A stretch of 43,981 nt of DNA, taken from contig CAYGLM010000002.1 in assembly GCA_964350915.1 (NCBI GenBank), forward strand, positions 15,728 to 59,708, read 5' to 3'. Origin of the DNA: an uncultured Gammaproteobacteria bacterium (GTDB lineage Bacteria; Patescibacteriota; Patescibacteriia; Patescibacteriales; UBA12465). A model generated the notes under the pieces. The model was not told where the DNA came from, did not search any database, and saw nothing but the letters and a program-made list of their open reading frames with translations. Below, one piece after another: positions 3,260 to 36,594 of this stretch. How positions within the stretch are numbered: position 1 is the first letter of the stretch; every line of letters begins with the position of its first letter. A program made the translations under genes and the position numbers.

Positions 3260-3383
3260 GGATAAAACTGGGATTTGATTTTTTTGTAATTTTTTGTTAA
3301 AGTGGAAGCTAATTGCTGCGACTTAATTGAAATTGGGCAGCAAAGTTTTTTATCGGACAAATCATAGCAATGTAATAATTTTT

Positions 3384-3968
3384 ATGCGTAAATTCTTCTT
3401 ATTTGTTTGGGAAATAGTCAAGGTAGTAAGTATTTCCTTGGCGATCATTTTACCTGTTCGTTATTATTTGATTCAACCGTTTTATGTTAAAGGTGCCTCA
3501 ATGGAACCTAATTTTCATGATCATGAATATTTGATAATAGACGAAATCAGTTATCGTTTTAAAGAACCGGTTAGGGGGCAAGTTGTAGTTTTTCGTTACC
3601 CCAAGAATCCACAGGAATATTTTATTAAACGCATCATCGGGTTACCGGGAGAAGAGGTGCAGATTGCAGATGGAAAAGTTATTATTTTTAATGATTATTG
3701 GCCAGAAGGGTTAGCTCTTTCAGAACATTATTTAATTCCAGGAACAGAAACTTATGATAATAATGGTATCCGAACTTCTATTGGAAATAACGAATATTTT
3801 GTTTTAGGAGATAATCGCAATGCCTCTAAGGATTCGCGTAGTTTTGGGCCGGTAGACAAAGCATTTATCACGGGCAAAGTTTTGTTCCGAGGCTGGCCTT
3901 TAGATAGGGTGAATATTTTTGATAAAAATGCTTGGCCACAATATGAGCCAAATATTATCCAGCCCTAA
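3384..3968 (+). CDS. lepB: Signal peptidase I
   Basis: GASMEPNF (catalytic Ser box), FIKRIIGLPGE (Lys box), GDNRNASKDSR. I prefer the ATG at 3384 (MRKFFLF plus TM helix) over the TTG at 3327 given in the ORF track. Confidence 0.85.
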   Translation: MRKFFLFVWEIVKVVSISLAIILPVRYYLIQPFYVKGASMEPNFHDHEYLIIDEISYRFKEPVRGQVVVFRYPKNPQEYFIKRIIGLPGEEVQIADGKVIIFNDYWPEGLALSEHYLIPGTETYDNNGIRTSIGNNEYFVLGDNRNASKDSRSFGPVDKAFITGKVLFRGWPLDRVNIFDKNAWPQYEPNIIQP

Positions 3969-7272: not shown

Positions 7273-9930
7273 ATGTTGAAAAGATACCCAATATTTTTCG
7301 GCTTTTTATTAGCTATCGCCTCTCTATTGTCGGCTAGTTTTGCTATGGCGCAAGACTTTGGGTTGGAGCCGGTAGATAGCACTATAATGCTAGCTTCAGG
7401 CGACCCTAGAGTAATCATCGGTCGCATCATTCAAATCGCCTTAACTTTTCTCGGCGTTATTTTGCTTGGCCTGATAATTTATGCTGGGTTTTTATGGATG
7501 ACTTCCGGAGGCGAAGAAGAAAAGATTAGGCGCGCTAAAGGTATCTTGCAAAGCGCGATCATTGGGCTAGCGATCACTTTGGCTGCTTGGGCTATTACCA
7601 CTTTTATTATAACTCGCTTATTTGCTGCAATTTCCGGAGGCGGTAGCAATACTCCTTCTGGAACACCGACTAATTTTTCTGGATATGGTTTAGGTGCTAT
7701 CGGCGCCTGCTCAGTTGAATCGGTTTATCCAGAAAATGGCCAGAAAGATGTCCCGAGAAATTCTTCGATTATTATTACTTTTAAAGAAACCATCAGCTTA
7801 GCTTCGGTTTGTGTTAATGCTAGCGGCGCTTCCTGCGCTTGTGATAATGCTGCTTGTTCCAAACTCAATCCTATGGTTATTAGGATTTTTAATACTGAAC
7901 TTGGTGATGCCTGCAGCTCATCTTGTCCTAGTCCTAATTCAAATGTTGCCGACGTTGTTGTTTCAGTTTCTTCAGATAGCCAAACTCTAGTGCTGACTCC
8001 GGCCGGATATCTGGGTTCTCAAGAAAGAAATACGCGCTATGAAGTACGAGTGACAACTGATTTGAAAAAATCGGATGGCTCCTCAATGCTGGCTAGTTGT
8101 AGCGGTGGTGATTTACGCTGGGGATTTGAAGTTAACACTTCGCTCGACCTTACTCCTCCCCAAGTTGTGGCCGGATCATTATTCCCTCAACCCGATAATG
8201 AAAAAGACATTACCGGCGTTAGCGTTCCGGCTGTTGCCGCTACTGGAGAAATTAGAGCCAACAGTTGTCCTAAAAAATATCAGGCAGCTAACATAGTTAG
8301 TGTTACTCCGACCACAGAAGTTTCTCTTGATTATCATGGCACGATTAACAAATTTAAAGTTGTTATTCCAGCTGATACTACTGATCGCGCTCAGCTTTTT
8401 AATGGCAACACTAATGCGCTTTTAGGAATAGCTGATTTTAATGCCCAAAACATCGCTACCTTTCCAAGTTATTTAAGTATTAAGGCGGAAGCGCGAGCAT
8501 CCGGGCAGATGTGGGAGATAAATATTAACCCGGAACAACTTGCCGACACTTTGCGAGTTGGAAATATTGTTTACATTTTTTCTGATAGTAGCGCCAATAA
8601 TAATATTCAAGTTCCTGAAGGAGCTTGCAACACTGATCAGCAGGCGGCTAATATTGCCGCTAAGCTCAGCGGGCACTCGGATGTAAATGTTAATCTTTCT
8701 GGTAGTCGAGTTTTACTAACAGCGAAAATCGCTGGCAGTGCCGGCAATAGCTTGTCTTTAAATACTAGCAATCAAACAGCTTTACTTCTGACTCAATTTT
8801 CTGGAGGTTCAGATTTGGCAACCAGCTATACTATCAATGGTCGCAAGGATGCAGCCATGAACACGATTATTAAAATTGGTTTTAATGAAGCCATTAATCC
8901 GGTTACTTTATCAGGAACAGCTTCTGAGGTGGCTAATTATATTAAAGTAGTTAATGCTGCTGGCGGCGGATTAAATGGTTCTTCTTGCTCTTCAGCAGCT
9001 AATTGCCGGTCTTATAAATGTGATAACTCAACCTGTGTCGGTGATTACCTTAACGGACGCTTTATGGTTAGCAGTGGTTATAGGACAGTAGAATTTATTT
9101 CCGATAATGAATGTGGTATTAATGGTTGCGGTGAAAAAGTATATTGCTTACCACCAAATAGTAATTTAGCAGTAGAAATTAGAGCGGCAAATCTAAGACA
9201 ATGTAATGCTGACTCAGAATGTGCCGCTTTCAGTCCTTTTCGCATCTGTGCTGCTAGTCAGGCCGGAGGCAGGACTTGTCAAGATGCTAATGGGCGCAGT
9301 TATCCTATGGCCAATATCCTTAATTTGGGAGGCGTTACCGACATGGCCTTCAATTCTTTAGATGGCAACCGCGATCGTTTAGCTGATGGCCCGATTACAT
9401 TTTTTAATGAAAATAATGGCAATATTGATAATAGAGATAGTTATCGATTTTCTTTCTTCGTCAATGATCAGAAAGAATTGTCTTCACCTCAAGTTACTTC
9501 CATTCGTCCAGCTAGCGGTGCTGCGGACGTGATCGACTTAGCCTCTCCTGTTGAAATAGCTTTTAATACTTTAATGATGTCTAGCACTCTGCGTTCTGGC
9601 ACAATGGTATCTAGCCCCTCATCTCCAGCTCATAAATTCATCAACCTCAGGAGTGAGGCACCTTCACCCATTGGTTATTGGGTGGAAGGTCAGGATAGAG
9701 ATAATATTCCTCTTGATGGTGTGGTTGATATGACCCTTGCTCTAGTTAAGCACTCTCCTTTTTTAGAATCGTTTACTTACAGTACCCAAATAGGTTCCGG
9801 CGTTAAAGATATTTATCAGAATTGTTTTAAGCCTAGTTCTGGTCCAGGCTGCGAAGCGACCTGGGAAAATCCTTCATGTTGTTTTGGCTCAGCCACTGAT
9901 ACTCTTGATGCGAGCGGAAATTGCCAGTAA
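7273..9930 (+). CDS. 885-aa cysteine-rich surface protein: signal peptide, TrbC/VirB2-like (T4SS-pilin-like) two-helix hairpin, then Ig-like (SbsA/Big_5-type) ectodomains
   Basis: The N-terminus is MLKRYPIFFGFLLAIASLLSASFAMA|QDFGL, followed by DPRVIIGRIIQIALTFLGVILLGLIIYAGFLWMTSGGEEEKIRRAKGILQSAIIGLAITLAAWAITTFI and a Gly/Ser linker. Three segments follow the Big_5 pattern (CSVESVYPENGQKDVPRNSSIIITF; PPQVVAGSLFPQPDN; SPQVTSIRPASGAADVIDLASPVEIAF). There are many Cys clusters. Confidence 0.75.
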   Translation: MLKRYPIFFGFLLAIASLLSASFAMAQDFGLEPVDSTIMLASGDPRVIIGRIIQIALTFLGVILLGLIIYAGFLWMTSGGEEEKIRRAKGILQSAIIGLAITLAAWAITTFIITRLFAAISGGGSNTPSGTPTNFSGYGLGAIGACSVESVYPENGQKDVPRNSSIIITFKETISLASVCVNASGASCACDNAACSKLNPMVIRIFNTELGDACSSSCPSPNSNVADVVVSVSSDSQTLVLTPAGYLGSQERNTRYEVRVTTDLKKSDGSSMLASCSGGDLRWGFEVNTSLDLTPPQVVAGSLFPQPDNEKDITGVSVPAVAATGEIRANSCPKKYQAANIVSVTPTTEVSLDYHGTINKFKVVIPADTTDRAQLFNGNTNALLGIADFNAQNIATFPSYLSIKAEARASGQMWEININPEQLADTLRVGNIVYIFSDSSANNNIQVPEGACNTDQQAANIAAKLSGHSDVNVNLSGSRVLLTAKIAGSAGNSLSLNTSNQTALLLTQFSGGSDLATSYTINGRKDAAMNTIIKIGFNEAINPVTLSGTASEVANYIKVVNAAGGGLNGSSCSSAANCRSYKCDNSTCVGDYLNGRFMVSSGYRTVEFISDNECGINGCGEKVYCLPPNSNLAVEIRAANLRQCNADSECAAFSPFRICAASQAGGRTCQDANGRSYPMANILNLGGVTDMAFNSLDGNRDRLADGPITFFNENNGNIDNRDSYRFSFFVNDQKELSSPQVTSIRPASGAADVIDLASPVEIAFNTLMMSSTLRSGTMVSSPSSPAHKFINLRSEAPSPIGYWVEGQDRDNIPLDGVVDMTLALVKHSPFLESFTYSTQIGSGVKDIYQNCFKPSSGPGCEATWENPSCCFGSATDTLDASGNCQ

Positions 9931-10028: not shown

Positions 10029-13000
10029 GTGAAGAATAAATTTTTCAAACATCTTTTATCATTTTTACTTATAGCTTCCGGCTTGTTGTTTTTTCGCCTG
10101 GCTCTAGCGCAGGATTTTGGTCTAGCGGAGGTGGAAAGTGGATTAGGGGGTTCCTTATCGTCTGATGATCCACGTACAATCGCCGGCAGAATAATTAATG
10201 TTTTACTTGGCTTTTTAGGGGTTATCGCTTTAGGACTGATAATCTATGCTGGATTTTTATGGATGACCTCTGGTGGCGAAGAAGATAAAATTTCTAAAGC
10301 TAAAAAATTACTAGTCAGTGCTGTTATCGGTTTAGCTATTATTTTAGCCTCTTGGGCAATTGCCACTTTTGTTATTAATCGTTTAAGCGATGCTACTCAA
10401 GGTGGTGGCGGTGGCGGCTGCGTTTCTGGGGAGACCATGTCTTGCGGCTGCGATGGTATCAAGGTTTGTTTAAATGGTACCTGGCAACCTTGTGTTGGCT
10501 CAGATTGTAGTGGCGGCGGGTTTGGTCCTACTATGTGCGACAGTAGTCCACTGCCAGGCTGCCAAGCTGATAGCGACATCTGTGCCCCGCAAAATTATTG
10601 TGATGATAATTGTTATTGTCGTCCGCGTGGTGAAGTGGGAGATTCTTGTGATGGCGATAAAACAACACCAACCTGCGATGCTAATAACGATTTATGTGGA
10701 GAATTTTTATCTTGCGACTCAGATACTTGCACCTGTTACGGGCCGCCAGTTATTACCAGTATTAGTCCAGCTGGAGGCTTTTGTCAGGAAGATAAGAATA
10801 AGTCATGTCGCCTAGATTCTGACTGCGCAACCACATGCGACAAGATAACTCCTAACGGTGCGCCGGAAAACTTCTTAACCATTTCCGGCAAAGGCTTTGG
10901 TGTTTATGAAGAAGGGATTAGTCGGGTAATATTTATTGCTGGTAACCGCACTGGTCTTAGGCCCGCTACTGTTAATCCAATGTGTGTTAACACCTGGAGT
11001 GATAGTCAAATCATTATCGCCATTCCTAGCGGCGCTGGTGATGGCCCGATTAAAGTTATTAGAAACGATAACATGGAAGATTCTTCGGATAATGATTATG
11101 GTCCCAAGCTACCTAATTTTATTGCAAATAATATAGTGCGCCCCGGTCTTTGTTTCTTGAGTCCGGCAGAAGGTGAGTTGAGTGAAGCGGTTACTTATCA
11201 GGGTATCAATCTTAATAACGGCACTGCATATTTTGGCAGCTATCAGTCTAATGTTCGAGCACTAAATTCTAACTTTAGTTTTCCGGCTGGTACTTCTGGT
11301 ACCGCCCAGGTCCCTAATATCAGATCCGGGGCCACCACCAGTTTCGTAACTAGCACGTTTGGAGGTAATCAGGAAAATAGCAATTACTTACGTTTTACCA
11401 AGAAAGCAGACCCAAGAGAGGGAGCTTATATCGTATCTTTTTCGCCAACCCAAGGTCGCTCGGGGCAATACGTGACAATAAATGGTAGTGGTTTTGGCGG
11501 AATTAAGGGGGATTCAAGAGTTTATTTTGGGGACCAGGAAGCCAATTATACTTTTCCGCCGGTATGCGCAAGTTCTGTCTGGGGAGATAATCAAGTAATT
11601 GTTAAGGTGCCAGAAGGAATAAATAATGGTAATTATTTAATCCGCATGACCATTGGTGGTCAAAACATAGATACGGCTCAGTTAAATCCTAATATTTTTC
11701 AAGCTGACGATTCTTTATCATTAAAGACTAGTATTTGTAAGTTAGAGCCTAGACAGGGAGCAGTTTCTACGCCAGTGAAAATTTACGGAGAATATTTTGG
11801 TGCGGAAAATTCTAGCGGCGTCGCTCAGTTTAATGTACAAAAAAATATTTCTGGCACTATTAAGAAAGAAAGTGCCGCTGATGTATTGGCGGTCTCTGTG
11901 CCGGCCGATGCCATTACTGGCCCGGTCAGAGTGGTGAAAAATGGAGAGTGGGGCAATGAGGCTAATTTCGAAGTTGGTAGTTGTACTTCTAATGACAATT
12001 GCCCCGGTCAAGTATGTTGTCCAGCTAATACTTACAAGAAGGGGCGATGTGTTAATGTTCTTTTGGATTGTTTAATAGATATTCCGACTTCAGTTTTTGA
12101 GTGGAAGTTTAGCACTGGCTATGTTAATCCAAGCCAGATAGATCCGACGGAAAGTTGCGCTACTATTGCTAATCGTTTTGGTAGCTGTCAGGTTGGCTCT
12201 TTCTGTCCGAATGCGCCGGGAGTTTGCTCGCCTTATGCTGGTGGCAGCGAAAAAACAGTTGGTAATTGCGATTATTCTTGTATTTCGATTGCGGGTTGCG
12301 GTGGTGGTATCGGCACAAGCATTTGCAGTTATGATCCAACAATAAATAAATGTGTTAAGAGTGGTTCGGACGGTACTTGTAGCTTGTCAAAGAAACAAAC
12401 CTTTATTATTCAAGAGCAATCATACGAATTCAATCTTACTTGTAGTACTGGTGGCCAGTGGCAATTTACGACTCCGATGTCTTGTCCAGATGGTTGGGAA
12501 AGAAGTGTTAATAATACTTGCATAGATAGATCTTCTAGTTGTGATGTTTGTATTTCTGGATTAAATTGCGAACGAGTCGGATCTGAGGGTCGCTGCGTAT
12601 CGAACAGTATTTGTCCGGCCGGTTCTTTATGTAAGGATGAACCAGATGACACACTTGATCGTTGTGTTGTTAACGATAGTCCAAGTTGTGATTGTTGTTG
12701 CCGTATTGGTAATAGTGCTCAAGATTGTTGTGCCCCTTTACAGTGCACGGGAACTTGCGGTCAGGATACAACAGATGATGGCGCTGGTTACGGGCTATGC
12801 TCGGGATGCGCTAACGCCGGATCAACAACCGCCTCTAGAGACGCTGCTTGTAACTGTACCGGACGTAGTGGTCAATTTTGTAGCGTGACAACAGAAAGAC
12901 AGGACGGAGTTTGTACTGACTGTAGCGGTTTAAAAACTCAAGAAGCCTGTGCTGAACACGCTGGCTCATGTTGTTTTGATGCGAAAAATAATATTTGCCG

Positions 13001-16000
13001 CGGCGGCTCAGGCACAGCTCTTACTGATAACCCCAGCGATTCAGATTACGGCTACTGCGCTTATTATAATTGTTCGGCCAGCGATTCTACTACTTGTGCT
13101 TCTTCTGCTCCGGTAAAAGATGGTTTTTATAAAGATATTGCCGCTTGTGAAAGTGGTTGTGCCTCTGGAATCGATCCTTGCAATCAGTTTAATGGAAGCA
13201 AAGATTCCTGCGTAGCGATGGGTAGTTGTTGCTATGATTTAGCCAGTTCTATTTGTCGCCAGGGAGGGCAGATTACCAGTGGCCCTGATATTGGTTATTG
13301 CGCTTATTATAATTGCGGCGATCCAAATGCGACTCCTCCGGGTAATCCGGAAACTTGTGATAATAATCCGAAAACAACAGGTGCTTATAATAATTTAAAT
13401 ACCTGTAGCTTGATTTGTAGCGGCGGCTTTTCTGGCGCCGGACAAGACTGTGTTTCATCATCTAATGTTTTAGCTTGTAGCTTTTCCGCCTGCAATTATC
13501 CGAGCATGTCCTGTCTCACCGACAGCGGTGCTTCGGCTGGGGATATTTCCGATTGTGGCACTTGCTGCTGTAGTCCATCTGACCCCAATGCTTGCAATGT
13601 TGGCGGTCCAGCTGGAGTATTATATTGCCAACCTAATCAAGGAAAATGTAGTGGTAATAATCGTGGACTATGCTGTGGCTGCAGTCAAGACGTTGATTGT
13701 GTCGGTGGCGTTGGCTCGGCAGAAAATGTTGGTTGTGGTTTAGATACTTGTTGCCAAGCTAGACCTCGAGTCATAGAGTCAATGCCACTAAATAATGCCT
13801 CCAATGTTTGCCGTAATGCTTCAATTGAAGTAACCTTCGATCAGATTATGGATAGTGCTACATTTAACGCTAACATTTTGTTAATTCAGGAGATGAATTA
13901 CGGATCTGGTATTTGTCCGAGCGGCGCCTTTGTTTATGATAATTTTAAAAGTAATAAAGGTGGAATTCTAGATAAGCTAGCAAGATTTTTTCAGCGCGTT
14001 AAGACGTCTTCTGAAAAAATGATTGCTAGAATTTTCCGTGGTGAATCAAGTGCTTTAGCGAACCTGCCTGACCCAAATAAGCTTTATTGCGCGACTCCTG
14101 TCATGGTTTCAGCCTATCACAACGACGAGCAGACGGTGGCAATAATTCGTCCGCGTAACTTGTTAGCACCAGGAGCCAGATATTATTTAGTAGTTAAGGG
14201 CGATGAACAGCTCAATAGTCAATTAGGTGTGACGAGCATGAAGGGAATTGGTATGAACGGCGAGGGATTATTATTATCTGGCGGCGCAGTTGAGGGAGTT
14301 GATATTCAATTTAATAAAACTTCTTATATTAATTCTCATATTTTCCAGTTCACTACTCTGTCCGACAGAGATACTAATGCTGGTGTCTGTGCGATTTCAA
14401 CAGTAAAAATTAGACCATCCTCTTATCTGTTTAAGACGACGAACAATAGTTTAGATGAAAATGATAATAATCCTAGTCACAATACCTTTGATACGGTTTA
14501 TGACCGAGATAAAGTTTTTGCTGCCTGGGCTTATAGTGCAGACGGACAGGCAATTCAACCGGTTACTGGTTATTTTTGGAATTGGGATTTCAGTTTGACT
14601 AATTCCACCATCGTTTCCATGAGAACGCGGGCAGATTTTGCCGGACTAGCTTCGAATCGGGCTTTTATTTCTGCTCGAGAAACTGCTACTGATGGCGAAA
14701 GCAAGCTTATCGCCGCTGTAAATATGACACCATTTTTAAGTGGTGATTCTAATGAAGACCCAGCTTGTGTCTGTGCCGATGATATTTGTTCAAATCGATG
14801 TCTTAATGCTTTTTCTTTCGGCGATAGCATGGCCGCTACGAGTGATATCTACGTATTTATTTGTGAAAACCCTTGGCCACCAGTGAGTGGGGGCGAGTGG
14901 TACCCGTGGCGGGATAATTGCGAAGGAGCTATAGGCGGTTGTGCGGATTTTAATTATAAATTCTATTATTGCCGCGATGCCGGACAGCCAGGAACACACG
15001 ACGATTTACCGGCCATTATTGATAAAGCGGTTATTAGAGGTCAGAGCGCCACCTTAACTTGTAGTTCGGATAGTTCGACTTGCTCCGCAGTTAACACTCC
15101 TTGCGGCGCTGATCTTAATGGCGACGGCACGGCGGATGGAATTTGTATTTGGAATATTTTGAAAGAATCATATTTTTTCCGAGAAGCTGTTTCGTCAGCT
15201 GGAACATTGACGGCAGTGACTGATAAAAAAACAAATGGAGAGGTTTTACTGACCTGGACTTCGAGCAGTGCTCAAGCCGCGTCTTATAAAATATATTATG
15301 GTGAACTCGGTAAAGCCATGACCGGGTCTCAGGAATTTAATGCTAGTGAAGTCTGTAATTTAGTTGGTGCATTTTATAATTGTTCCGCTACAGTTTCTAA
15401 TTTAAAAAATAATCAGGCTTACAATTTTCGACTATCTGTTTTGACTGCTAATAAAGCAGAAAGTGTTTTGAGTAATGAAATGAGGGCAACTCCAACTGAC
15501 CAAACGCCGTACGGCGCTCCTAGTAGATTAAATGTTGAAATTAAAGATAATAAATTTATTTTTTCCTGGGACGACTACGATACGGGCAGCAACAAAATCT
15601 ATCGTCTTTATCACGGAGTTTTTCCCTCAAGGTACGGGGAAAGTTTTGATTCAATCTCACAAGCAAAAAAATTAGAATTTAGCCTTGATAGATTTAATTT
15701 AGGAGATCATTATTTTGCAGTATCTTCTATTGATGCAAGTGGTAATGAAAGCGCTAAATCATTGGAAATAAGCTTTGTTAAAAGCAGTTGTGATAGTGAC
15801 GCGCCAAATTGTTTTAAATTTGTAACCTTTGAGGGCATTCTTACTAATGTTGATTTTGAGCAAACAACCTCTACTGGCCTGCCTCAAGATTGGTCTATTT
15901 CTCAACAAAAATATTCCTCAGTTCGCATTAGTACGGCTGAACAATTTTCTGGCAGACAAAGTGTTTTATTGCATCAAGATCAGGGCCATCCGTATCCTGG

Positions 16001-16706
16001 GCAATGTAATGCTCAAGTATGCACCTCACATCCATCATGCACCTGGAATACTACTTCTAAAACTTGTTCTTTTACTGCTAAGGATGATTGTCATCCCAAT
16101 GAAGCTGCTGTTTATCAAGAAGGAGAAACGCTGTGCTGGGGAAATAGTAATCGGGTCATGTGGTTAAGGCTAGCTTATAATTTAGCAAAACTTGATCTCA
16201 AGCAGGGCGATAAATATTCAATCAGCTTTTACTATAAAGGGAAAACTGCTGGCAATGTTGCCGTTTCTATGTCGCCAAGCTTAGGTTGGAGCACTCAGTG
16301 TATCCACTATTCATCCATTAATGCTTTAAGACCTGGATACACCTGGACTGGCGGAGCAATAACGCCCACACCACCAGCAGGAGCAAATCCGTGCAACGTT
16401 AGTTATGGAGCGCCATGTTCGGAGCAAGCTAATTATTGTTGTGTTCAGTCACCTTATCAAACTGCTTGCTACTCAGCGATTAATATGCCAACAATTAGAA
16501 TTAATACTTATGATGATTGGACTTGGTACTATTATCAGTTTGAATACAGAGATCAAATGGCATCCTGGCTTGATCGTAATGGAAATAAATTAATAGAGAT
16601 GGGAATGGCTATAGGATATAATTCTACAGTTAGTGGTGGCACTGATTTTTATGTTGATGATTTTGTAGTGAGAAAAATTACTTCCGGAGTAGAAATAAAT
16701 TATTAA
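10029..16706 (+). CDS. 2225-aa giant cysteine-rich surface protein: signal peptide, TrbC/VirB2-like hairpin, Cys-knot-like region, about 4 IPT/TIG-like domains, a long Cys-rich core, a Big_5-like domain, 2 FN3-like domains and a CBM_4_9-like C-terminus
   Basis: The N-terminus is paralogous to that of the 7273 protein (ALAQDFGL ... DPRTIAGRIINVLLGFLGVIALGLIIYAGFLWMTSGGEEDKISKAKKLLVSAVIGLAIILASWAIATFV, then GGGGGG). IPT-like segments include IVSFSPTQGRSGQYVTINGSGFGG. FN3-like segments are GEVLLTWTSSSAQAASYKIYYG and FIFSWDDYDTGSNKIYRLYHG. The C-terminus reads NVDFEQT...W...FYVDDFVV. My hand count is about 136 Cys. The start is a GTG with no obvious RBS, so the start is uncertain. Confidence 0.75.
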   Translation: MKNKFFKHLLSFLLIASGLLFFRLALAQDFGLAEVESGLGGSLSSDDPRTIAGRIINVLLGFLGVIALGLIIYAGFLWMTSGGEEDKISKAKKLLVSAVIGLAIILASWAIATFVINRLSDATQGGGGGGCVSGETMSCGCDGIKVCLNGTWQPCVGSDCSGGGFGPTMCDSSPLPGCQADSDICAPQNYCDDNCYCRPRGEVGDSCDGDKTTPTCDANNDLCGEFLSCDSDTCTCYGPPVITSISPAGGFCQEDKNKSCRLDSDCATTCDKITPNGAPENFLTISGKGFGVYEEGISRVIFIAGNRTGLRPATVNPMCVNTWSDSQIIIAIPSGAGDGPIKVIRNDNMEDSSDNDYGPKLPNFIANNIVRPGLCFLSPAEGELSEAVTYQGINLNNGTAYFGSYQSNVRALNSNFSFPAGTSGTAQVPNIRSGATTSFVTSTFGGNQENSNYLRFTKKADPREGAYIVSFSPTQGRSGQYVTINGSGFGGIKGDSRVYFGDQEANYTFPPVCASSVWGDNQVIVKVPEGINNGNYLIRMTIGGQNIDTAQLNPNIFQADDSLSLKTSICKLEPRQGAVSTPVKIYGEYFGAENSSGVAQFNVQKNISGTIKKESAADVLAVSVPADAITGPVRVVKNGEWGNEANFEVGSCTSNDNCPGQVCCPANTYKKGRCVNVLLDCLIDIPTSVFEWKFSTGYVNPSQIDPTESCATIANRFGSCQVGSFCPNAPGVCSPYAGGSEKTVGNCDYSCISIAGCGGGIGTSICSYDPTINKCVKSGSDGTCSLSKKQTFIIQEQSYEFNLTCSTGGQWQFTTPMSCPDGWERSVNNTCIDRSSSCDVCISGLNCERVGSEGRCVSNSICPAGSLCKDEPDDTLDRCVVNDSPSCDCCCRIGNSAQDCCAPLQCTGTCGQDTTDDGAGYGLCSGCANAGSTTASRDAACNCTGRSGQFCSVTTERQDGVCTDCSGLKTQEACAEHAGSCCFDAKNNICRGGSGTALTDNPSDSDYGYCAYYNCSASDSTTCASSAPVKDGFYKDIAACESGCASGIDPCNQFNGSKDSCVAMGSCCYDLASSICRQGGQITSGPDIGYCAYYNCGDPNATPPGNPETCDNNPKTTGAYNNLNTCSLICSGGFSGAGQDCVSSSNVLACSFSACNYPSMSCLTDSGASAGDISDCGTCCCSPSDPNACNVGGPAGVLYCQPNQGKCSGNNRGLCCGCSQDVDCVGGVGSAENVGCGLDTCCQARPRVIESMPLNNASNVCRNASIEVTFDQIMDSATFNANILLIQEMNYGSGICPSGAFVYDNFKSNKGGILDKLARFFQRVKTSSEKMIARIFRGESSALANLPDPNKLYCATPVMVSAYHNDEQTVAIIRPRNLLAPGARYYLVVKGDEQLNSQLGVTSMKGIGMNGEGLLLSGGAVEGVDIQFNKTSYINSHIFQFTTLSDRDTNAGVCAISTVKIRPSSYLFKTTNNSLDENDNNPSHNTFDTVYDRDKVFAAWAYSADGQAIQPVTGYFWNWDFSLTNSTIVSMRTRADFAGLASNRAFISARETATDGESKLIAAVNMTPFLSGDSNEDPACVCADDICSNRCLNAFSFGDSMAATSDIYVFICENPWPPVSGGEWYPWRDNCEGAIGGCADFNYKFYYCRDAGQPGTHDDLPAIIDKAVIRGQSATLTCSSDSSTCSAVNTPCGADLNGDGTADGICIWNILKESYFFREAVSSAGTLTAVTDKKTNGEVLLTWTSSSAQAASYKIYYGELGKAMTGSQEFNASEVCNLVGAFYNCSATVSNLKNNQAYNFRLSVLTANKAESVLSNEMRATPTDQTPYGAPSRLNVEIKDNKFIFSWDDYDTGSNKIYRLYHGVFPSRYGESFDSISQAKKLEFSLDRFNLGDHYFAVSSIDASGNESAKSLEISFVKSSCDSDAPNCFKFVTFEGILTNVDFEQTTSTGLPQDWSISQQKYSSVRISTAEQFSGRQSVLLHQDQGHPYPGQCNAQVCTSHPSCTWNTTSKTCSFTAKDDCHPNEAAVYQEGETLCWGNSNRVMWLRLAYNLAKLDLKQGDKYSISFYYKGKTAGNVAVSMSPSLGWSTQCIHYSSINALRPGYTWTGGAITPTPPAGANPCNVSYGAPCSEQANYCCVQSPYQTACYSAINMPTIRINTYDDWTWYYYQFEYRDQMASWLDRNGNKLIEMGMAIGYNSTVSGGTDFYVDDFVVRKITSGVEINY
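12921..13427 (+). repeat. Tandem duplication of an approximately 85-aa cysteine-rich module within the 2225-aa protein
   Basis: Copy A is CSGLKTQEACAEHAGSCCFDAKNNICRGG...DYGYCAYYNCSASDSTTC...CESGCASG. Copy B is CNQFNGSKDSCVAMGSCCYDLASSICRQG...DIGYCAYYNCGDPNATPPGNPETC...CSLICSGG. The Cys spacing and the GYCAYYNC core are conserved. Confidence 0.8.
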
Positions 16707-16725
16707 TTTGGTAGTTTTATTTTAT

Positions 16726-19700
16726 ATGAAAAATTATAAATTTAAATTAACGCTTTTCATTATTATTATTGTTGCCACGCTAATATTATTTGCTCCGCAG
16801 ACTAGAGCGCAATCAGCTGACAATAATCCCGATGCAATTGCTATTCGCGTTATTCCTAATCCCAATCATTATAGCGTTACACGCTGGTATCAGAATCAGG
16901 GATTTTCCGGCTCACCTCAGGCGCTAACGGTTGATGGTTATGAAGCTTTGCGTGACGGACGTACCGTGTATATAAATGCTGCCAATGTGGTGGGTAAGAC
17001 TATCTATACTAATATTTATTTGATTTCCTATAACCAGGATTATAGTGTTAAAACGGTGGATATTTTAGGACAAATCATCGCTAACTGGAAGTTTAATGAT
17101 AATCTTCCCGCCGAAGCATCGACTTGTTCTATTTCTGCCTTGAAATGTGAGAAAGACGCGGACTGCGCTTCAAGTCAATCCTGTGACTTAGTTCGCGGCG
17201 CCTGTGTTTTAAAGGAAGTGAAAAGCTGTGCGGTTGATACCGATTGTCCCGTTAATTTTTTCTGTGATAGTATAAAAGCTAAAATTATTCGTGACTTAAA
17301 ACGAGTCGGTCGTGTAGAAGAGATAAGAGAAGCGTTAACGAGATATCGTAATGCTAATGGTCGCTATCCATTGCTTGATGCCGGAACTTATTTACCAGGA
17401 AAAACAACTTCGCTCTGGCCGAGTTGGAATCAAGTATTTTTACCGGCCGTTGGCTTGAGCCAAGGAGTTCTTGATCCAGTTAATCGTTTCGGATCTTGTC
17501 CGGGCTATGATGCTAAAACTTGTTGGGATAAGGATAAGCAGGAATTTATTGGAGCGCCAGCGGCTGGAGACTTAACTATTTCCTTGCCGGCCGATAGCCA
17601 TGCCCTAGTTTATACTACTAACCAATCTGGTTCCCAATATAATATTTGCGCCGTAATGGAAAGTCGTGAGCCAGAGCTTGGCTATACTTTATATCCTAAT
17701 GACCCGATAGGCAGTAGCTGTGTTACCAATACTGGGATTTTAGCCACCGGTAACGCTTTTAATAATCTGCCACAAATTACCGAATTATCATTAAAAGGAA
17801 TAGCTGGCCGTGAATATAATGGCTTTGTTAAAGCAGTTGATATAGATAATGATCCTTTGACCTGGTCTTTGTCTGGCGGTAGCTGGGCGGGCTGGTCAGC
17901 TATGCCGGCTATTCAAGGAACTAGTGATCCGAATCAGAAAAAATTATTTTCTTCTCGTGCTGGTAGCCCTGGCATATACCCCGTTACTATTACAGTTAGA
18001 GATACAAGAGGCGGAGTAACTTCAACGACGACTAATATTGAAATAATTTCTTCTTCTTCTTTCGCAGAAGTTGATGAATATAATTATCGTCTTGATCCGA
18101 TAGTTCCTTTTGACTATAGTTTTTACGTATCTGGAAATAACGCCGCACCAACTTATGGACTAAGAGCAATTTCTGAGCCCGATGTGCTTAGATATTCCAA
18201 TATTAGAATTAATGAGTCGTCTGACGGCACTAACCGCGTAAAAGTTTCTTTTCAGGGAATAATTTCACCTACTATTAAATTTAATGAAGATACGGAAACC
18301 GTTTACGAGCTGACAGTTAATTCATCAGGGGCAACCGCAGCCGTTAGTCGTTTTATTGTTAGAATCAAGATAGATAGACCTATTTTGGAGTTAAATTGTG
18401 AAACTCAGTCACGTCATAATTACGACTACAGCTGTCGTTTGGGCAATATCAAACAAGGAAATCATGATATAGAATATAATTCCGTTCTCGCTCTTCCTGC
18501 TGGACTTTCAGTGGGAGAAAAGACAAGCGAACCCGGAGTGATTTATTTATTTGGCAAAACAACCACTGTTCATCCCGGACAAGAAGTAAGAATAAGGGCC
18601 GTCAATGAATACGGCACAGAGACTATAAGAAGTTTTATTTTAAGAGTGAATACTTATTGTGGCGACGGCTTTAAACAAGCGCCCAACATGGAAGGACGCG
18701 GCGGCGTTTTCAATAATGGTTATGAGGCTTGTGATGGAAAAGCAGACGAGGCGGTTTCTGCCACTGATAGTAGTAAATATAGACAGTATGCTTGCAATAC
18801 CCCAACAGGAGCAGTGACTCCTTATCCAATTTCTGGAAGCAGTTATTGTGTATTTAAATCACCGCTTGATGGCGGAGGATATTGCGGGGATACTTATTGT
18901 CAGACCAGACATGAAGATAAGAGTACCTGCCCGTTTGATTGCGATCCCGCGTTTTCAGGTTCAGGGCAAAATCTTGGCGGAGACAACCCCGGTGCCATCA
19001 GTTGTCAGCTAACTAACTATTGTCCAGACGGCCAAACCTGTGTCAACGGTACTTGTGTGAGTCAGTGTTGGGACAGGGAAGTTGTCAGTAAGGTACAGTT
19101 TTCAGAAGGAGATGCAACTAGACCAGGAACTTATGAATATCGTGACTGTAATTTTTTTGGCTTTGATTGTGTAGCAACTTTTACCTATACTTCAACCAAA
19201 ATATCTCCAAGTACTGATGGTACTATCAAATATTGTTTCGCCGATAATTATCCTAATACCCCCGCCTACCCCAGAGGCAACTATTGCACCATTGTTAGAA
19301 TAGATGATCCATTTTGCACTAATAGCGCCCTTTGTCCGGTTGGTTTTAGTGATTTAAAACAAGTAGGACTTACTGGCACTGGCGACACTTGTCGCGATAA
19401 ATCTGACACCTGTCCCAATAGATGGTGTCAAAGACGTATTTATGAATGCTCTAAAACGCAGACAGTAACTTATTGTGTTGGAGATGCTTGTAGCACAACA
19501 GGAGGAACGGTTATGGATGGTAAAATTAACTCTAGCGGACAATGCATAGGATATGTAGTAGTAACACCTCCAGTCATTCCGGCAGACTCCTGTTCTTCCG
19601 ATAGTGAGTGTGCTACTGGTCAAGAATGTGTTGGCGTTCAAGGAAGTTGTGTTGACAATAATACAAGGGCATATTCTGCTAATTGTGATCAGTATTCTTT

Positions 19701-20580
19701 TGATTCAACCATTTGTGTTGCTAACCCTTATTATTCTTGCGATTGGGTTCCAACAATTCTTGGCACCTGCGTAACTAAGCAAGTTGTTGTTGACCCAACG
19801 CCCACTCCTCCGCCAACAACTTGTACTCCGGTGTGTGAGGTGGGGCGTTGTGGCGATAACCAGTGCGGTGGCACTTGTCCTTGCTACAGTGGCTCAGCTT
19901 GTGACAATGCAACTAAGACCTGTAAATGTTTAACCGGGTGCGCCTATACTGTAGCGTCAAGCAATGTTAATACGCTCTATAATTGTAGCGTTTATAATAA
20001 TTATTGTTCTCCTGGTGGCGGCTATTGTGGAGACCTGAGATGTGATGACAGAATATTAGATGATTGGAACGGGTTAATTGCCGGGGAAACATTTGATAAC
20101 TGTCCTACTGATTGTTCGGCACCACGTTGTGAATGTAAGGCAGTTAATCCAACATTTCAATGTGGTAGAGCTATTTGCCCTGATGGTAAGACGTCGTATA
20201 TGTGTGGCGTGTGTGAAGGTCAGCCATCTGGCGGTTGGCAGTCCTATGAATGTATTAATAATATGTGTGTGCCGAAATTAAAAGAAACCTGCGGCAACGG
20301 TGTGATAGATGCTTTCGAGACTTGTGATGATGGCGCAAATAATATTGCTGAAGCTGATATTCCAACCAGAGAACAATTAACACATCTTTATAATTATTCA
20401 ATGCAGAAGTATTGCACTACTATAAATTGTTTAAGAATGAACGTCTATCCGCCCAAATGTGGCGACGGTATTTGTGATTTTGATATTCTTCCAGATAAGG
20501 AAGGCTGCGGCTCAATAACTTGTCGAGACAATTATGGAATTCCCCAATATGATTGCGTGGGGAGTCCAAAATGTAGTTAA
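16726..20580 (+). CDS. 1284-aa cysteine-rich secreted protein with an internal pilin/pseudopilin-like globular segment, cadherin-like (He_PIG/Cadg-type) Ig domains and Myxococcus-type cysteine-rich repeats
   Basis: Signal peptide MKNYKFKLTLFIIIIVATLILFAPQTRAQSA (ATG at 16726 preferred over the TTG at 16708). IIRDLKRVGRVEEIREALTRYRNANGRYP...LDPVN...YNICAVMES resembles the globular head of type IV pilins/GspG. DNDPLTWSLSGG...GIYPVTITVRDTRGG is cadherin/He_PIG-like. CGDGFKQ...GYEACDG and CGNGVIDAFETCDDGANN resemble the Myxococcus Cys-rich repeat. Confidence 0.7.
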   Translation: MKNYKFKLTLFIIIIVATLILFAPQTRAQSADNNPDAIAIRVIPNPNHYSVTRWYQNQGFSGSPQALTVDGYEALRDGRTVYINAANVVGKTIYTNIYLISYNQDYSVKTVDILGQIIANWKFNDNLPAEASTCSISALKCEKDADCASSQSCDLVRGACVLKEVKSCAVDTDCPVNFFCDSIKAKIIRDLKRVGRVEEIREALTRYRNANGRYPLLDAGTYLPGKTTSLWPSWNQVFLPAVGLSQGVLDPVNRFGSCPGYDAKTCWDKDKQEFIGAPAAGDLTISLPADSHALVYTTNQSGSQYNICAVMESREPELGYTLYPNDPIGSSCVTNTGILATGNAFNNLPQITELSLKGIAGREYNGFVKAVDIDNDPLTWSLSGGSWAGWSAMPAIQGTSDPNQKKLFSSRAGSPGIYPVTITVRDTRGGVTSTTTNIEIISSSSFAEVDEYNYRLDPIVPFDYSFYVSGNNAAPTYGLRAISEPDVLRYSNIRINESSDGTNRVKVSFQGIISPTIKFNEDTETVYELTVNSSGATAAVSRFIVRIKIDRPILELNCETQSRHNYDYSCRLGNIKQGNHDIEYNSVLALPAGLSVGEKTSEPGVIYLFGKTTTVHPGQEVRIRAVNEYGTETIRSFILRVNTYCGDGFKQAPNMEGRGGVFNNGYEACDGKADEAVSATDSSKYRQYACNTPTGAVTPYPISGSSYCVFKSPLDGGGYCGDTYCQTRHEDKSTCPFDCDPAFSGSGQNLGGDNPGAISCQLTNYCPDGQTCVNGTCVSQCWDREVVSKVQFSEGDATRPGTYEYRDCNFFGFDCVATFTYTSTKISPSTDGTIKYCFADNYPNTPAYPRGNYCTIVRIDDPFCTNSALCPVGFSDLKQVGLTGTGDTCRDKSDTCPNRWCQRRIYECSKTQTVTYCVGDACSTTGGTVMDGKINSSGQCIGYVVVTPPVIPADSCSSDSECATGQECVGVQGSCVDNNTRAYSANCDQYSFDSTICVANPYYSCDWVPTILGTCVTKQVVVDPTPTPPPTTCTPVCEVGRCGDNQCGGTCPCYSGSACDNATKTCKCLTGCAYTVASSNVNTLYNCSVYNNYCSPGGGYCGDLRCDDRILDDWNGLIAGETFDNCPTDCSAPRCECKAVNPTFQCGRAICPDGKTSYMCGVCEGQPSGGWQSYECINNMCVPKLKETCGNGVIDAFETCDDGANNIAEADIPTREQLTHLYNYSMQKYCTTINCLRMNVYPPKCGDGICDFDILPDKEGCGSITCRDNYGIPQYDCVGSPKCS

Positions 20581-20591
20581 TAAAAAATTAT

Positions 20592-20897
20592 ATGAATAAA
20601 AAACAAAAATTAATTATAATATCAAGTCTAGCGGCGTTGTTGATAGTTGTTATTGTCTTAATAATAACTACAAATCGCGGTGATGATCAGGGCTACTGGC
20701 CGGATGCTGACCAGTATACACCTGAGTTTATGTCGGCCGAGGAAAAGTATATGTTTGATTTATCAGAAGACACACAAGTCCAAGTTCTGAAGCGAGAGGA
20801 GTCAGGCATGGTTGAAGTTTACAAAGTAATTAGAAGCGAAGACGATATTATCCATGACCTGGATTCAATTAAGCCTATAGATCCTAGATATAATTAA
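20592..20897 (+). CDS. Small bitopic membrane protein, function unknown (101 aa)
   Basis: N-terminal TM helix LIIISSLAALLIVVIVLIITT followed by an acidic soluble tail. It starts 11 nt after the preceding stop, which suggests co-transcription. Confidence 0.5.
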   Translation: MNKKQKLIIISSLAALLIVVIVLIITTNRGDDQGYWPDADQYTPEFMSAEEKYMFDLSEDTQVQVLKREESGMVEVYKVIRSEDDIIHDLDSIKPIDPRYN

Positions 20898-21003: not shown

Positions 21004-21792
21004 ATGTTTGAAAATCAAAACAATTCCGATGCTGCTAGCCGAGCACAAGTCGACGATATTTTTGCCGACACTGATAAAACGCCTGAAGGACAGATGCCTG
21101 GCGGTAACTCGGAAATAGTAACACGCAGTGTTGGCATGGGCGCAAATAGTGGTCCTATGTCCGCACCGGAGCCTGAAGAAGAACCACGTGGTAGCAATAA
21201 AGGTTTTATGATTGCCGTTATTGTTATGAGCGTAATCATTCTTGGCCTACTCGGCTTCTTGGCTTATAATAAGTTTTTAAAAACGCCAGTTGATGAAGAT
21301 TTGGATATAGCCGTGCTTCCAGAAACACAGAGCGAAAATACAGCAACAGGCACAGAGCTAACAATCGAGACTGAAGACGAAATAGCGACTTCCACCGACA
21401 CGGAGCCAGATTTCATTGATTATTTACCAATCTTACCAAATGAAGGCGGTGATGATGAAACCGTTGAGCCAGGAGTCGATACAGAGCTAGCTAATATTGA
21501 TTCTGATGGCGATGGCCTTACTGACGCAGAGGAATTAATTTACGGCACTAACCCAAATTTAATTGATACGGACGGCGACGGTTTGACTGACTATGAAGAA
21601 GTGATGATTTATAAAACTGATCCCTTAAAACAAGATACCGATGGTGACGGCCTAACTGATTATGAAGAAGTAATGATTTATAAAACTGATCCTTTGAATC
21701 CAGATACAGATGGAGACGGCTATTCAGATGGCGATGAGGTGCGCAGTGGTTATGATCCTCTTGGTCTCGGTAGATTACCAGAAAACAGATAA
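21004..21792 (+). CDS. Bitopic membrane protein with an acidic linker and thrombospondin-type-3-like Ca-binding repeats (262 aa)
   Basis: TM helix GFMIAVIVMSVIILGLLGFLAY. Four DxDxDG units: DSDGDGLTDAEE, DTDGDGLTDYEEVMIYKTDPL (x2) and DTDGDGYSDGDEVRSGYDPLGLGRL. Confidence 0.7.
   Translation: MFENQNNSDAASRAQVDDIFADTDKTPEGQMPGGNSEIVTRSVGMGANSGPMSAPEPEEEPRGSNKGFMIAVIVMSVIILGLLGFLAYNKFLKTPVDEDLDIAVLPETQSENTATGTELTIETEDEIATSTDTEPDFIDYLPILPNEGGDDETVEPGVDTELANIDSDGDGLTDAEELIYGTNPNLIDTDGDGLTDYEEVMIYKTDPLKQDTDGDGLTDYEEVMIYKTDPLNPDTDGDGYSDGDEVRSGYDPLGLGRLPENR
21565..21702 (+). repeat. Two tandem 69-bp units encoding DTDGDGLTDYEEVMIYKTDPL(KQ/NP)
   Basis: By my alignment 12 of 69 nt differ. Ten of these are silent changes within the 21 identical codons, and two change the last two residues. 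Confidence 0.9.
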
Positions 21793-21814: not shown

Positions 21815-22021
21815 ATGTTAACCGCTGATAATAAAAATTCCTTAACAGAAGCTCCTCAACAGAATCAACAAGTCGATGTTAATGTTAAAAAAAAGAGTCG
21901 ACTGGCGATTGATGTTCATTCTATGCCTAGAACTAGCGAAAAAAGTTTGAAAATTTGGTTCGTTTTGGGAGGAGTAGCTATTTTGGTAGTAATTGGTTTA
22001 ATCGCTATTTTATTAATTTGA
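21815..22021 (+). CDS. 68-aa tail-anchored membrane protein; looks like a truncated paralog of the N-terminal module of the next gene
   Basis: KKKSRLAIDVHSMPRTSEKS plus TM helix IWFVLGGVAILVVIGLIAILLI, compared with KPKVTVDQDLIVHNMPHRSRFS ... TM in the 22024 protein. Its stop is 2 nt before the next ATG. Confidence 0.45.
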   Translation: MLTADNKNSLTEAPQQNQQVDVNVKKKSRLAIDVHSMPRTSEKSLKIWFVLGGVAILVVIGLIAILLI

Positions 22022-22023
22022 TT

Positions 22024-23070
22024 ATGTTCGGAAAAAAGCCAGTAGGAAAAACAGAAGAGAATAAGCCTAAAGTTACGGTTGATCAAGATTTGATTGTCCA
22101 TAACATGCCGCATCGTTCTCGCTTTAGTACGGCGCCAAGCATGAAAAAAAGTGTTAATTCTGGCAATGAATTTTTAGGAGCGCCGGCTAAAACCCCGAAT
22201 AATTTTAAGGTCGTGGGCGGGCTGATAATTGGCTTCGGTATAATTTTTATCGGTACTTTGGCCTATCTTAGTTATCGCTTTATTATTAAGCCTCAAGCCG
22301 AGCCAGCACCGATAATAAAACAAGAACCGACGCCGGTTGCACCGGTAAATGAGGTGGAGGTAGATTTGACTGAAGTAGCAGTTTCGACCTCAACACCAGT
22401 AGAGGGAGTAGAGGCCAACATTATTGATTTAGAATCCGAAGGAGAAACAGTGGTTCCTGATAATGAATCAGATGTTTTGATGCCGGAAGAGGGCCTGGGG
22501 TCACCGGAAACTCCCTGGTCGCCGGTTTTAGATACTGACGGTGACGGCTTAACAGATGATGAAGAGGCCGTCTTAGGGACTAATCTCAATGAAATTGATA
22601 CGGATCAAGATGGTTATCTAGATTTAGCAGAAATAAAAAGCGGTTATGATCCTAGTGGTCCAGGCAGGCTAATCGATAATAAAAATATTGCTCGCTATCA
22701 GGGCGAGGTTGGAAGGTACTCCTTGCTTTACCCGGTAGCTTGGAATATCAGGACGCTTAACAATGGTTATACTGCTATGATTTCTGCTCCGGATAATTCC
22801 CTGATGCAAATATCAGTCCAGGAAAATCCACGCATTCAAGACATTAGTAGTTGGTATCAAGATACTTTTCCTGGAGAAAATATGTCTTATGACCGAGTTA
22901 AGAATGGTCCTGGCTGGGAAGGAATTATGGGCGAGAATGGTTTAAATTTTTATTTAACCGATCAGGCCAGACAGAGTATTTATGTGATATCATATATTCC
23001 GGCGATGAGTGGACGCTTAGCTTATCCCAATATTTTTCAGATGTTAATTGATACTTTTCAATTAAATTAA
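22024..23070 (+). CDS. Bitopic membrane protein with TSP3-like Ca-binding repeats and a C-terminal globular domain of unknown function (348 aa)
   Basis: The ATG at 22024 (MFGKKPVGK) is preferred over the ORF-track start at 21955, which overlaps the upstream gene. TM helix VVGGLIIGFGIIFIGTLAYLSY. Repeats DTDGDGLTDDEEAVLGTNLNEIDTDQDGYLDLAEIKSGYDPSGPGRL. Confidence 0.65.
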   Translation: MFGKKPVGKTEENKPKVTVDQDLIVHNMPHRSRFSTAPSMKKSVNSGNEFLGAPAKTPNNFKVVGGLIIGFGIIFIGTLAYLSYRFIIKPQAEPAPIIKQEPTPVAPVNEVEVDLTEVAVSTSTPVEGVEANIIDLESEGETVVPDNESDVLMPEEGLGSPETPWSPVLDTDGDGLTDDEEAVLGTNLNEIDTDQDGYLDLAEIKSGYDPSGPGRLIDNKNIARYQGEVGRYSLLYPVAWNIRTLNNGYTAMISAPDNSLMQISVQENPRIQDISSWYQDTFPGENMSYDRVKNGPGWEGIMGENGLNFYLTDQARQSIYVISYIPAMSGRLAYPNIFQMLIDTFQLN

Positions 23071-23103: not shown

Positions 23104-23132
23104 AAAACAACGCCTTAAGGGCGATGTTTTTT
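23104..23132. terminator. Bidirectional hairpin terminator between the 22024 gene and convergent clpP
   Basis: In aaaaacaaCGCCTtaaGGGCGatgtttttt the core 5-bp stem has one G.U and a 3-nt loop, extended by A/T pairs, with an A-run on the 5' side and a T-run on the 3' side. Confidence 0.5.
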
Positions 23133-25632: not shown

Positions 25633-25664
25633 AGTTAATAAGTCTTTAGTCTTTAATTAAATAT

Positions 25665-36562: not shown

Positions 36563-36594
36563 AATTTTAAGTTAGAGATAATCATATAACTGCT

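Follow-up and report, generated by a model that had tools for sequence, protein, structure and literature searches.

The window analysed here, from an ultra-small bacterium of the Patescibacteria, is a stretch of 43,981 nucleotides (nt) of contig CAYGLM010000002.1 (assembly GCA_964350915.1, positions 15,728 to 59,708 of the forward strand), in which three very large plus-strand genes, here called A, B and C, lie downstream of the divergently transcribed relA gene. The products of A and B each begin with a signal peptide followed by a two-helix hairpin, and these N-terminal modules are almost certainly members of the VirB2-like pilin family of Patescibacteria. We propose, with a probability of roughly one half, that A and B are modular VirB2-type pilins whose hairpins associate with one another within the cytoplasmic membrane and so hold an adhesin-like complex of A, B and C on the outside of the cell. 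The parts of A and B to which this proposal refers are the following.

7273..9930, plus strand: gene A, 885 amino acids (aa), with signal peptide, hairpin, linker and an immunoglobulin (Ig)-like, Cys-containing ectodomain; open reading frame (ORF), Pfam matches to T4SS_pilin and Big_5, AlphaFold2 (AF2) model.
7273..7350, plus strand: signal peptide of A, aa 1-26, predicted signal peptidase I (SPase I) site SFAMA↓Q; hydrophobic segment at 5-27, AF2 helix at 5-24 and then disorder.
7402..7626, plus strand: VirB2/T4SS_pilin hairpin of A, aa 44-118, with the DPR motif, helix 1, the loop TSGGEEEKIRRAK and helix 2; PF18895 match at residues 48-112, AF2 helices at 45-76 and 82-120.
7627..7692, plus strand: linker of A, aa 119-140, rich in Gly, Ser, Thr and Pro; AF2 confidence score (predicted local distance difference test, pLDDT) below 50 at residues 121-138, family identity 0.29; stand-alone pilins stop here.
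7693..9927, plus strand: ectodomain of A, aa 141-885, beta-rich and Ig-like, with 26 Cys; Big_5 matches, all-beta AF2 model.
10029..16706, plus strand: gene B, 2225 aa, with signal peptide, hairpin, poly-Gly linker and Cys-rich ectodomain; ORF, Pfam matches to T4SS_pilin, TIG, Big_5 and fn3.
10029..10109, plus strand: signal peptide of B, aa 1-27, predicted SPase I site RLALA↓Q; sequence, AF2 and hydrophobicity.
10167..10391, plus strand: VirB2/T4SS_pilin hairpin of B, aa 47-121; PF18895 match at residues 46-115, TrbC match at residues 7-114, AF2 helices at 48-80 and 85-124 with pLDDT >90.
10392..10430, plus strand: linker of B, DATQGGGGGG, running into the Cys-rich region; sequence, aligned to the C-termini of stand-alone pilins.

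The sequence-only reading of this DNA had described a signal peptide, a DPR motif, a hairpin and a linker at the start of both proteins, and had taken the hairpins for TrbC/VirB2-type pilins. All the motifs that it quoted are present, and profile comparison of the first ~120 aa bears out the pilin identity. Against the Pfam family T4SS_pilin (PF18895; gathering threshold 26.6 bits) the isolated modules scored 36.0 bits (A) and 39.4 bits (B), with Pfam E-values of 1e-9 to 1e-10, and the full-length proteins scored 34.2 and 33.4 bits, all above the threshold. The TrbC/VirB2 profile (PF04956; threshold 27.9 bits) matched module B just below its threshold, at 27.4 bits (E 4e-6) and over profile positions 10-97 of 98; module A was unreported, and several close stand-alone relatives have precomputed PF04956 matches. 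With the profile of the Mbov_0395 family, annotated as pilin-like conjugal transfer proteins (NF045849; cut-off 40 bits), B (35.9 bits, E 4.5e-9) and A (27.6 bits) both stayed under the cut-off. In a 27-sequence alignment with stand-alone pilins, both modules share all 10 invariant columns and the near-invariant ones, and the stand-alone proteins stop 0-8 residues past helix 2, exactly at the start of the Gly/Ser linker of A and B. The best 120 matches of a word-indexed search with module B were all small pilins (94-217 aa), the nearest being 55-63% identical. A comparison by hhalign of the family profile with what we take to be the Agrobacterium VirB2 sequence gave a probability of 95% and serves as a lead only. 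The layout of a conjugative pilin, i.e., a predicted cleaved signal peptide and two hydrophobic helices with a short charged loop between them, is present in both proteins. Their size is not that of a pilin, which as a stand-alone precursor measures ~70-130 aa: at 885 and 2225 aa, only the module alone is pilin-sized. Judged by size and gene neighbourhood, A and B as whole proteins fall outside what is usually called a conjugative pilin.

At their N-termini (~120 residues) A and B share 61% identity along 116 aligned aa, without gaps inside the hairpin (BLASTP, E 1e-44). A carries SFAMA↓QDFGL and DPRVIIGRII, B carries RLALA↓QDFGL and DPRTIAGRII, and in both the loop GLIIYAGFLWMTSGGEE(E/D)KI is followed by the second helix and then by a GGGS... 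or GGGGGG linker. The A-x-A at positions -3/-1 and the Q behind it are conserved across 144 related modules. The similarity that had been pointed out at the nucleotide level, between 7480..7530 and 10240..10290, is real, and it is explained by amino-acid conservation: the longest identical run between the A and B DNA is 14 nt and only 38% of the shared residues use identical codons, which rules out recent gene conversion in the window.

Each protein has exactly three hydrophobic segments, the signal peptide and the two helices, all within the first ~120 residues, and none was found in the remaining 760 (A) or 2100 (B) residues. Cys is missing from the first 130 residues and occurs 26 times (A) and 136 times (B) afterwards, and the K/R content of the inter-helix loop is higher than that of the N-terminal tail. 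The earlier placement of the Cys-rich part outside the cell is consistent with the positions of the hydrophobic segments and of the Cys residues, and on these sequence features an extracellular ectodomain is very probable. AF2 predicted for B a confident hairpin (pLDDT >90) after the signal-peptide helix and a disordered stretch, and for full-length A a hairpin that is joined by a disordered linker (121-138) to an ectodomain made up of beta structure throughout. The Foldseek matches of the A ectodomain were all weak, the folds concerned being of the Ig/FN3, CopC-like, cadherin and ClfB/SdrD types, and in a sequence search of the PDB the sole match of B was an IPT/TIG domain. We infer an adhesin function for these ectodomains. 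An enzymatic ectodomain in A was considered and rejected: the Foldseek matches are of beta-sandwich Ig/FN3/CopC-like/adhesin types only, with no catalytic fold among them.

The architecture of A is widespread. Full-length A has at least 120 orthologue clusters, all of 870-921 aa, with T4SS_pilin and Big_5 domains and 49-79% identity from end to end. Proteins of the A/B type are already in the databases under automatic names, and the A orthologues are called "pilin" or "Ig-like domain-containing protein" at NCBI. In a one-genome-per-species collection 447 genomes encode a relative, and the loci of the best 80 of these were fetched. All 80, mostly labelled Falkowbacteria or Patescibacteria (class ABY1), carry a full-length A orthologue, and in 71 of them it is directly followed by a hairpin-bearing gene for 1500-2400 aa (B type), which together with the window makes 72 loci. 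Many locus-bearing genomes (e.g., L006, L007 and L013) were deposited as 'uncultured Gammaproteobacteria bacterium' despite their patescibacterial gene content and orthologues, and L055 is labelled Bacillota; these labels are probably mislabelled submissions of metagenome-assembled genomes (MAGs).

The module had been regarded as normally a stand-alone protein that is here fused to large ectodomains. The fusion is real, but it is not exceptional. An exhaustive search of 1.84 billion representative proteins returned 22,014 clusters at E <=1e-3, and among the best 150 the hairpin is N-terminal to proteins of 272-4978 aa in 84, stand-alone in 24, and repeated as 2-10 tandem hairpins in 42. Such tandem 'poly-pilins', with 2 to at least 10 hairpins (P0241, P0324 and 40 other representatives), lack signal peptides between the repeats, and they show that hairpins placed side by side occur naturally. 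P0241 (L091:1777-3435) is located within a small pilin gene array. P0324 (L092:10001-15328), a protein of 1775 aa, also matches TrbC and lies on a contig with archaeal-type genes, e.g., that of ribosomal protein L39e, which suggests that the hairpin family reaches archaea. A literature search of incomplete coverage found no description of the fusion, of the A-B-C locus or of the tandem hairpin proteins.

The hairpin is the most constrained part of A. Within the A family, mean pairwise identity reaches 0.70 in the hairpin, as compared with 0.55 in the ectodomain and 0.29 in the linker; the signal-peptide helix, taken as a control within the same protein for a helix that is hydrophobic and no more, stands at 0.39. 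Positions that never vary among free pilins (DPR, G-F-x-W-M, G-G-x-E-x-K, A-K) are all unchanged in the hairpins of A and B. These hairpins form separate orthologous lineages, the nearest neighbour being an orthologue in 139 of 144 cases; even so, an A and a B hairpin from the same genome are more alike than an A and a B hairpin from different genomes, by ~8 identity points, in 70 of 72 genomes. The co-varying columns include residues 50-51, 84, 101, 108, 111 and 114 of A in the window. An amino-acid bias driven by GC content was rejected as the cause of this co-variation, because the excess persists with GC-matched controls (68 of 69 genomes, p = 5e-13). Elsewhere in the genome, the close stand-alone pilins take the first place in arrays of 5-6 pilin genes. 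With the product of this first gene the A and B hairpins share 57-68% identity, and with the other members, which are 31-55% identical among themselves, only 33-49%. To judge by its conservation, its invariant residues, the A-B co-variation and the likeness to the first array gene, the hairpin is more than a passive anchor. In Falkowbacteria, two of these arrays (L003:10001-12552 and L004:10001-12474) are found in a conserved context of housekeeping genes, for SMC, a Lon-like protein, SBP, a methyltransferase and PPDK, with a more divergent pilin of 143-188 aa 2-5 kb upstream; no virB4 was found within 10 kb of either.

The window has a GC content of ~40% and holds housekeeping genes of the type found in the candidate phyla radiation (CPR)/Patescibacteria, namely those for RuvB, QueA, signal peptidase I, HisRS, RelA/SpoT, ClpP, SecDF, FtsA/FtsZ and NrdD. 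Genes A, B and C are followed by a gene for a single-pass membrane protein and by two genes for TSP3-repeat membrane proteins. No terminator-like site was found between A, B and C, and the first one on the plus strand past the cluster is at 23111. The remaining members of the cluster and its conserved neighbour are listed below.

16708..20580, plus strand: gene C, 1290 aa (probably 1284 aa, from the ATG at 16726), a secreted Cys-rich protein and partner of B; one hydrophobic segment (signal peptide only), 82 Cys.
20592..20897, plus strand: gene D, a 101-aa single-pass membrane protein after C; a gene for 113-117 aa is in the equivalent place in L001, L002 and L088.
21004..21792 and 21955..23070, plus strand: two membrane proteins with TSP3-type calcium-binding repeats, the conserved end of the cluster; Pfam TSP3_bac, equivalent place in L001, L086 and L088.
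3327..3968, plus strand: signal peptidase I (S26), candidate processing enzyme and conserved neighbour; Pfam Peptidase_S26, equivalent neighbourhood in L001, L002 and L086.

Of 40 representatives above 1000 aa in length, 20 have the B and C homologues joined in a single polypeptide, of 2250-4980 aa. This fusion elsewhere is a Rosetta-stone link, and hence C belongs to the same functional unit. In the window B ends at 16706 and C begins 2-20 nt further on with a signal peptide of its own; as the two are fused in others and are adjacent separate genes here, the lineage of the window split the gene. A complete Falkowbacteria chromosome keeps the gene order signal peptidase I, HisRS, (RelA), A, B, (C), small membrane protein, TSP3 proteins, ClpP and SecDF, as do lineages further away, and the A-B-C cluster is vertically inherited. 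The signal peptidase I gene upstream and the ClpP and SecD/SecF genes downstream (23953..26585) recur as flanks of the cluster in other lineages (L001, L086 and L088); this presence of export genes could be simple synteny or a functional grouping.

In the mechanism that we propose, A and B would be exported by Sec, and their signal peptide would be cut after A-x-A by signal peptidase I, presumably the one encoded at 3327..3968. The mature N-terminus would then be the pilin hairpin itself, with helix 1 running from outside to inside, the short charged loop in the cytoplasm and helix 2 leading back out, and the flexible Gly/Ser linker would carry the disulfide-rich Ig-domain adhesin-like ectodomain (745 aa in A, ~2100 aa in B) outside the cell. 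A, B, the secreted C, the small membrane protein and the two calcium-binding TSP3 proteins probably form one surface complex. In the membrane the hairpins would pack side by side, A with B and possibly with the closely related g1-type free pilin, so as to form a platform of clustered anchors. That hairpins assemble specifically with one another, in whatever way, is a little better than an even bet, and an extracellular ectodomain is a good deal safer than that.

A number of observations weigh against the proposal that A and B are pilins in this sense and that their hairpins associate. Not all of the A-B co-variation need come from selection for packing, since some of it may be due to sporadic gene conversion from one neighbouring gene to the other. 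Identical A-B tracts of 23-68 nt occur in ~12 genomes, and identical codons show a small excess (0.489 against 0.454), a weak synonymous-site signal. As this signal is weak and long tracts occur in only ~12 genomes, gene conversion is sporadic and a contributor, and co-adaptation of the A and B hairpins likely contributes as well. Furthermore, the high conservation of the hairpin could come from contact with an insertase or with lipids instead of with other hairpins. A Foldseek search of the PDB with the AF2 hairpin returned generic helical hairpins only (E >1) and did not retrieve VirB2/TraA structures, and phmmer and profile searches of PDB sequences with the hairpin returned nothing, neither VirB2 nor TraA; we regard these searches as uninformative rather than negative, because a helical hairpin is too generic. 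Among all ORFs of at least 90 aa in the window, VirB4, VirB6 and VirB8-11 are absent, and the gene tables of six annotated related loci list no genes of a type IV secretion system (T4SS), with the locus always among housekeeping genes. With no VirB4, VirB6 or VirB8 at the locus, its link to a T4SS consists of hairpin homology alone.

The earlier statement that homologues of VirB4, VirB6 and VirB8-11 are missing from the window stands, but the window is not free of T4SS-related genes: 27 kb downstream, at 36595..38655, there is a gene for a soluble 686-aa ATPase that resembles VirD4/TraD-type coupling proteins, as a distant relative of type IV coupling proteins (T4CPs) with Pfam matches to TrwB_AAD_bind and TraG-D_C. 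This ATPase has a C-terminal CxxC-x17-CxxC zinc ribbon, and the ORF ahead of it (joint span 36218..38655, plus strand) encodes 114 aa with a single transmembrane helix at the C-terminus, a protein that might be its detached membrane anchor. Its neighbours are NrdD/NrdG, an exonuclease and a glycosyltransferase, with no T4SS cluster among them. T4SS genes were also sought beside other fusion families, but the three representatives examined were variants of the same housekeeping-embedded locus.

A and B could instead be true pilus subunits, i.e., minor, tip or sparse lateral pilins that a VirB4-type T4SS encoded elsewhere extracts and co-polymerises with the free pilin that is their close relative, so that the ectodomains are displayed on a VirB2-like fibre. 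Extraction into an extracellular pilus is a tentative idea that we hold to be doubtful, yet several points speak for it. The hairpins retain every invariant residue of the free pilins, and their likeness is specific to one free pilin paralogue. VirB4 is present in 4 of the 5 locus-bearing genomes found in Table S1 of PMC12102498; the fifth, an incomplete MAG, was scored VirB4-negative. For one of the locus-bearing genomes, GWF2_43_32, Table S3 of the same work gives adjacent VirB4 and TrsD, two T4CPs and a single VirB2, and from this one VirB2 it appears that the fusion proteins were not counted there. As pilus subunits, A and B would fill the role of a VirB5/PrgB-type adhesin; PrgB-like adhesins were not detected in Patescibacteria, and pilins are essential in Southlakia (PMC12102498). 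Loading onto a pilus is geometrically possible, because both termini of the F-pilus pilin face outward (PMC5018250), and it would parallel type IV pili, in which modular pilins carry grafted adhesion domains (PMC8179133). On the other hand, the six annotated loci lack T4SS genes and the locus is set within housekeeping genes, ectodomains of 745-4800 aa could not fit on every subunit, and a pilus built of PF18895 proteins has so far not been seen.

A less probable explanation is that large surface proteins have co-opted the pilin hairpin simply as two helices that hold them passively in the membrane, without hairpin-specific interactions. The lack of assembly-machinery genes at the locus agrees with this, and the occurrence of the same hairpin before very different extensions of 272-4978 aa is what one would expect of a generic anchoring cassette. 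It does not account well for a hairpin that is the most conserved part of the protein (0.70, against 0.39 for the signal-peptide helix), for invariant loop and N-tail motifs that have no obvious purpose in anchoring, or for the within-genome co-variation of the A and B hairpins; besides, a single helix suffices for the neighbouring membrane proteins of the cluster.

It is very unlikely that the hairpin serves as a handle for export or targeting and is later removed, the ectodomains being cut in the linker and then released or associated with the wall. The linker is indeed flexible, poorly conserved and rich in Gly/Ser, and C, which has a signal peptide only, is released anyway; but the linker has no conserved cleavage motif (identity 0.29, variable length), the cluster encodes no dedicated protease, and a plain signal peptide is enough for release, as in C. 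Finally, an artefact can be dismissed, be it a similarity that arose by chance or the joining of a small pilin gene to its downstream neighbour through a mistake in assembly or a frameshift, in view of two independent fusions in the window, the same architecture in at least 120 orthologue clusters and, across many separate assemblies, in at least 80 genomes, and the E-values of 1e-44 (A-B pair) and 1e-9 to 1e-10 (Pfam).

The architecture of A and B makes it easier to test how CPR bacteria come into contact with their hosts. In Patescibacteria, the T4SS and VirB2-like pilins are essential in the one species studied genetically, the function of the T4SS has been called "completely unknown", and a T4SS-associated adhesin has not been found (PMC10633639, PMC11665869, PMC12102498). 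Patescibacteria (CPR) depend on attachment to host cells, and the locus is a concrete candidate contact apparatus for one large CPR clade, in which a pilin hairpin is coupled directly to adhesin-like ectodomains of 745 to >4000 residues. The VirB2 fold as a fusion module, together with the tandem multi-hairpin proteins, is far commoner than the picture of small stand-alone pilins suggests, and such fusions and tandem hairpins affect the interpretation of pilin counts in metagenomic surveys. Specific residues for mutation can also be chosen from the A-B co-variation and from the constraint that the hairpin shows. If pilus loading were true, the T4SS pilus would carry giant species-specific adhesins, and with them the adhesin that is still missing for the essential T4SS of Patescibacteria would have been found.

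Among known systems, the nearest are the small pilins of the same phylum (PF18895), whose VirB2-like members and pilin arrays have been described (PMC12102498, PMC10633639). They share with A and B the signal peptide, the DPR motif, the two-helix hairpin and the loop signature, and identity between the modules and the first genes of Falkowbacteria pilin arrays is 55-68%, but they are stand-alone proteins of 100-150 aa, often beside virB4, whereas in A and B the hairpin accounts for ~14% (A) or ~5% (B) of the protein, at its N-terminus, and the neighbourhood is a housekeeping one. VirB2, TrbC and TraA (PF04956; F pilus, PMC5018250) have a long cleaved signal peptide and a hairpin of hydrophobic helices around a short charged loop, and their N- and C-termini both lie outside; the same is predicted for A and B. 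A and B differ from them in scoring below the PF04956 threshold, in having no VirB4, VirB6 or VirB8 nearby and in belonging to a monoderm organism. Head-to-tail cyclisation, which T- and P-pilins undergo, is impossible for A and B owing to the C-terminal ectodomain.

The Mbov_0395 proteins (NF045849), which occur on integrative and conjugative elements and plasmids of Mollicutes and Firmicutes, resemble A and B in the hairpin, in a loop motif YxGFKYxTSxGxxxKxxEAK and in a monoderm host; unlike A and B, they measure ~150 aa and are found in conjugation loci beside VirB4 and a cell-wall hydrolase. A tblastn search against plasmids gave one significant relative, on a plasmid of the Firmicute Pontibacillus (E 2e-4), and hhalign paired our family profile with this pilin-like protein at a probability of 97%. 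Its gene sits 4 kb upstream of those for a CD1110-family VirB4 and a large peptidoglycan hydrolase. On that plasmid (NZ_CP062975.1, 351801-358115; locus L090) the product is named 'Mbov_0395 family pilin-like' and lies upstream of VirB4 and a 1050-aa peptidoglycan endopeptidase, which means that VirB2-like hairpin proteins do occur in monoderm conjugation loci and bears on the published view that monoderm conjugation systems lack VirB2.

With the VirB5 pilus tip, the Gram-positive adhesin PrgB and extended VirB6, A and B share only a proposed role, that of a large surface part at or near the T4SS that contacts the target cell; no similarity of sequence or fold to these proteins was found by Pfam, by Foldseek of the A ectodomain or by the PDB sequence search of B. 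Type IV pilins have a fold and a machinery unrelated to those of A and B; prepilin peptidase cuts their class III signal peptide, only one helix stands at the N-terminus, and assembly is of the PilB/PilC type. The class III prepilin-peptidase site G↓(F/M)xxxE is absent from the N-termini of A and B, which have an AxA↓Q site of the SPase I type and two helices instead. A prepilin peptidase (A24) gene is encoded in the window at 29023..29787 (plus strand), directly 3' of the gene for a 782-aa O-antigen-ligase-like (Wzy_C) TPR protein (26669..29017, plus strand); it belongs to a type IV pilus system and is unrelated to the hairpins of the SPase I type. The analogy with type IV pilins lies rather in the design: in the modular pilins PilB and PilC of Streptococcus sanguinis (PMC8179133) and in large tip minor pilins, as would be the case in A and B, functional (adhesion) modules are grafted C-terminally onto a pilin module, and, if loading onto a pilus were true, A and B would be the first natural VirB2-type counterpart of these proteins.

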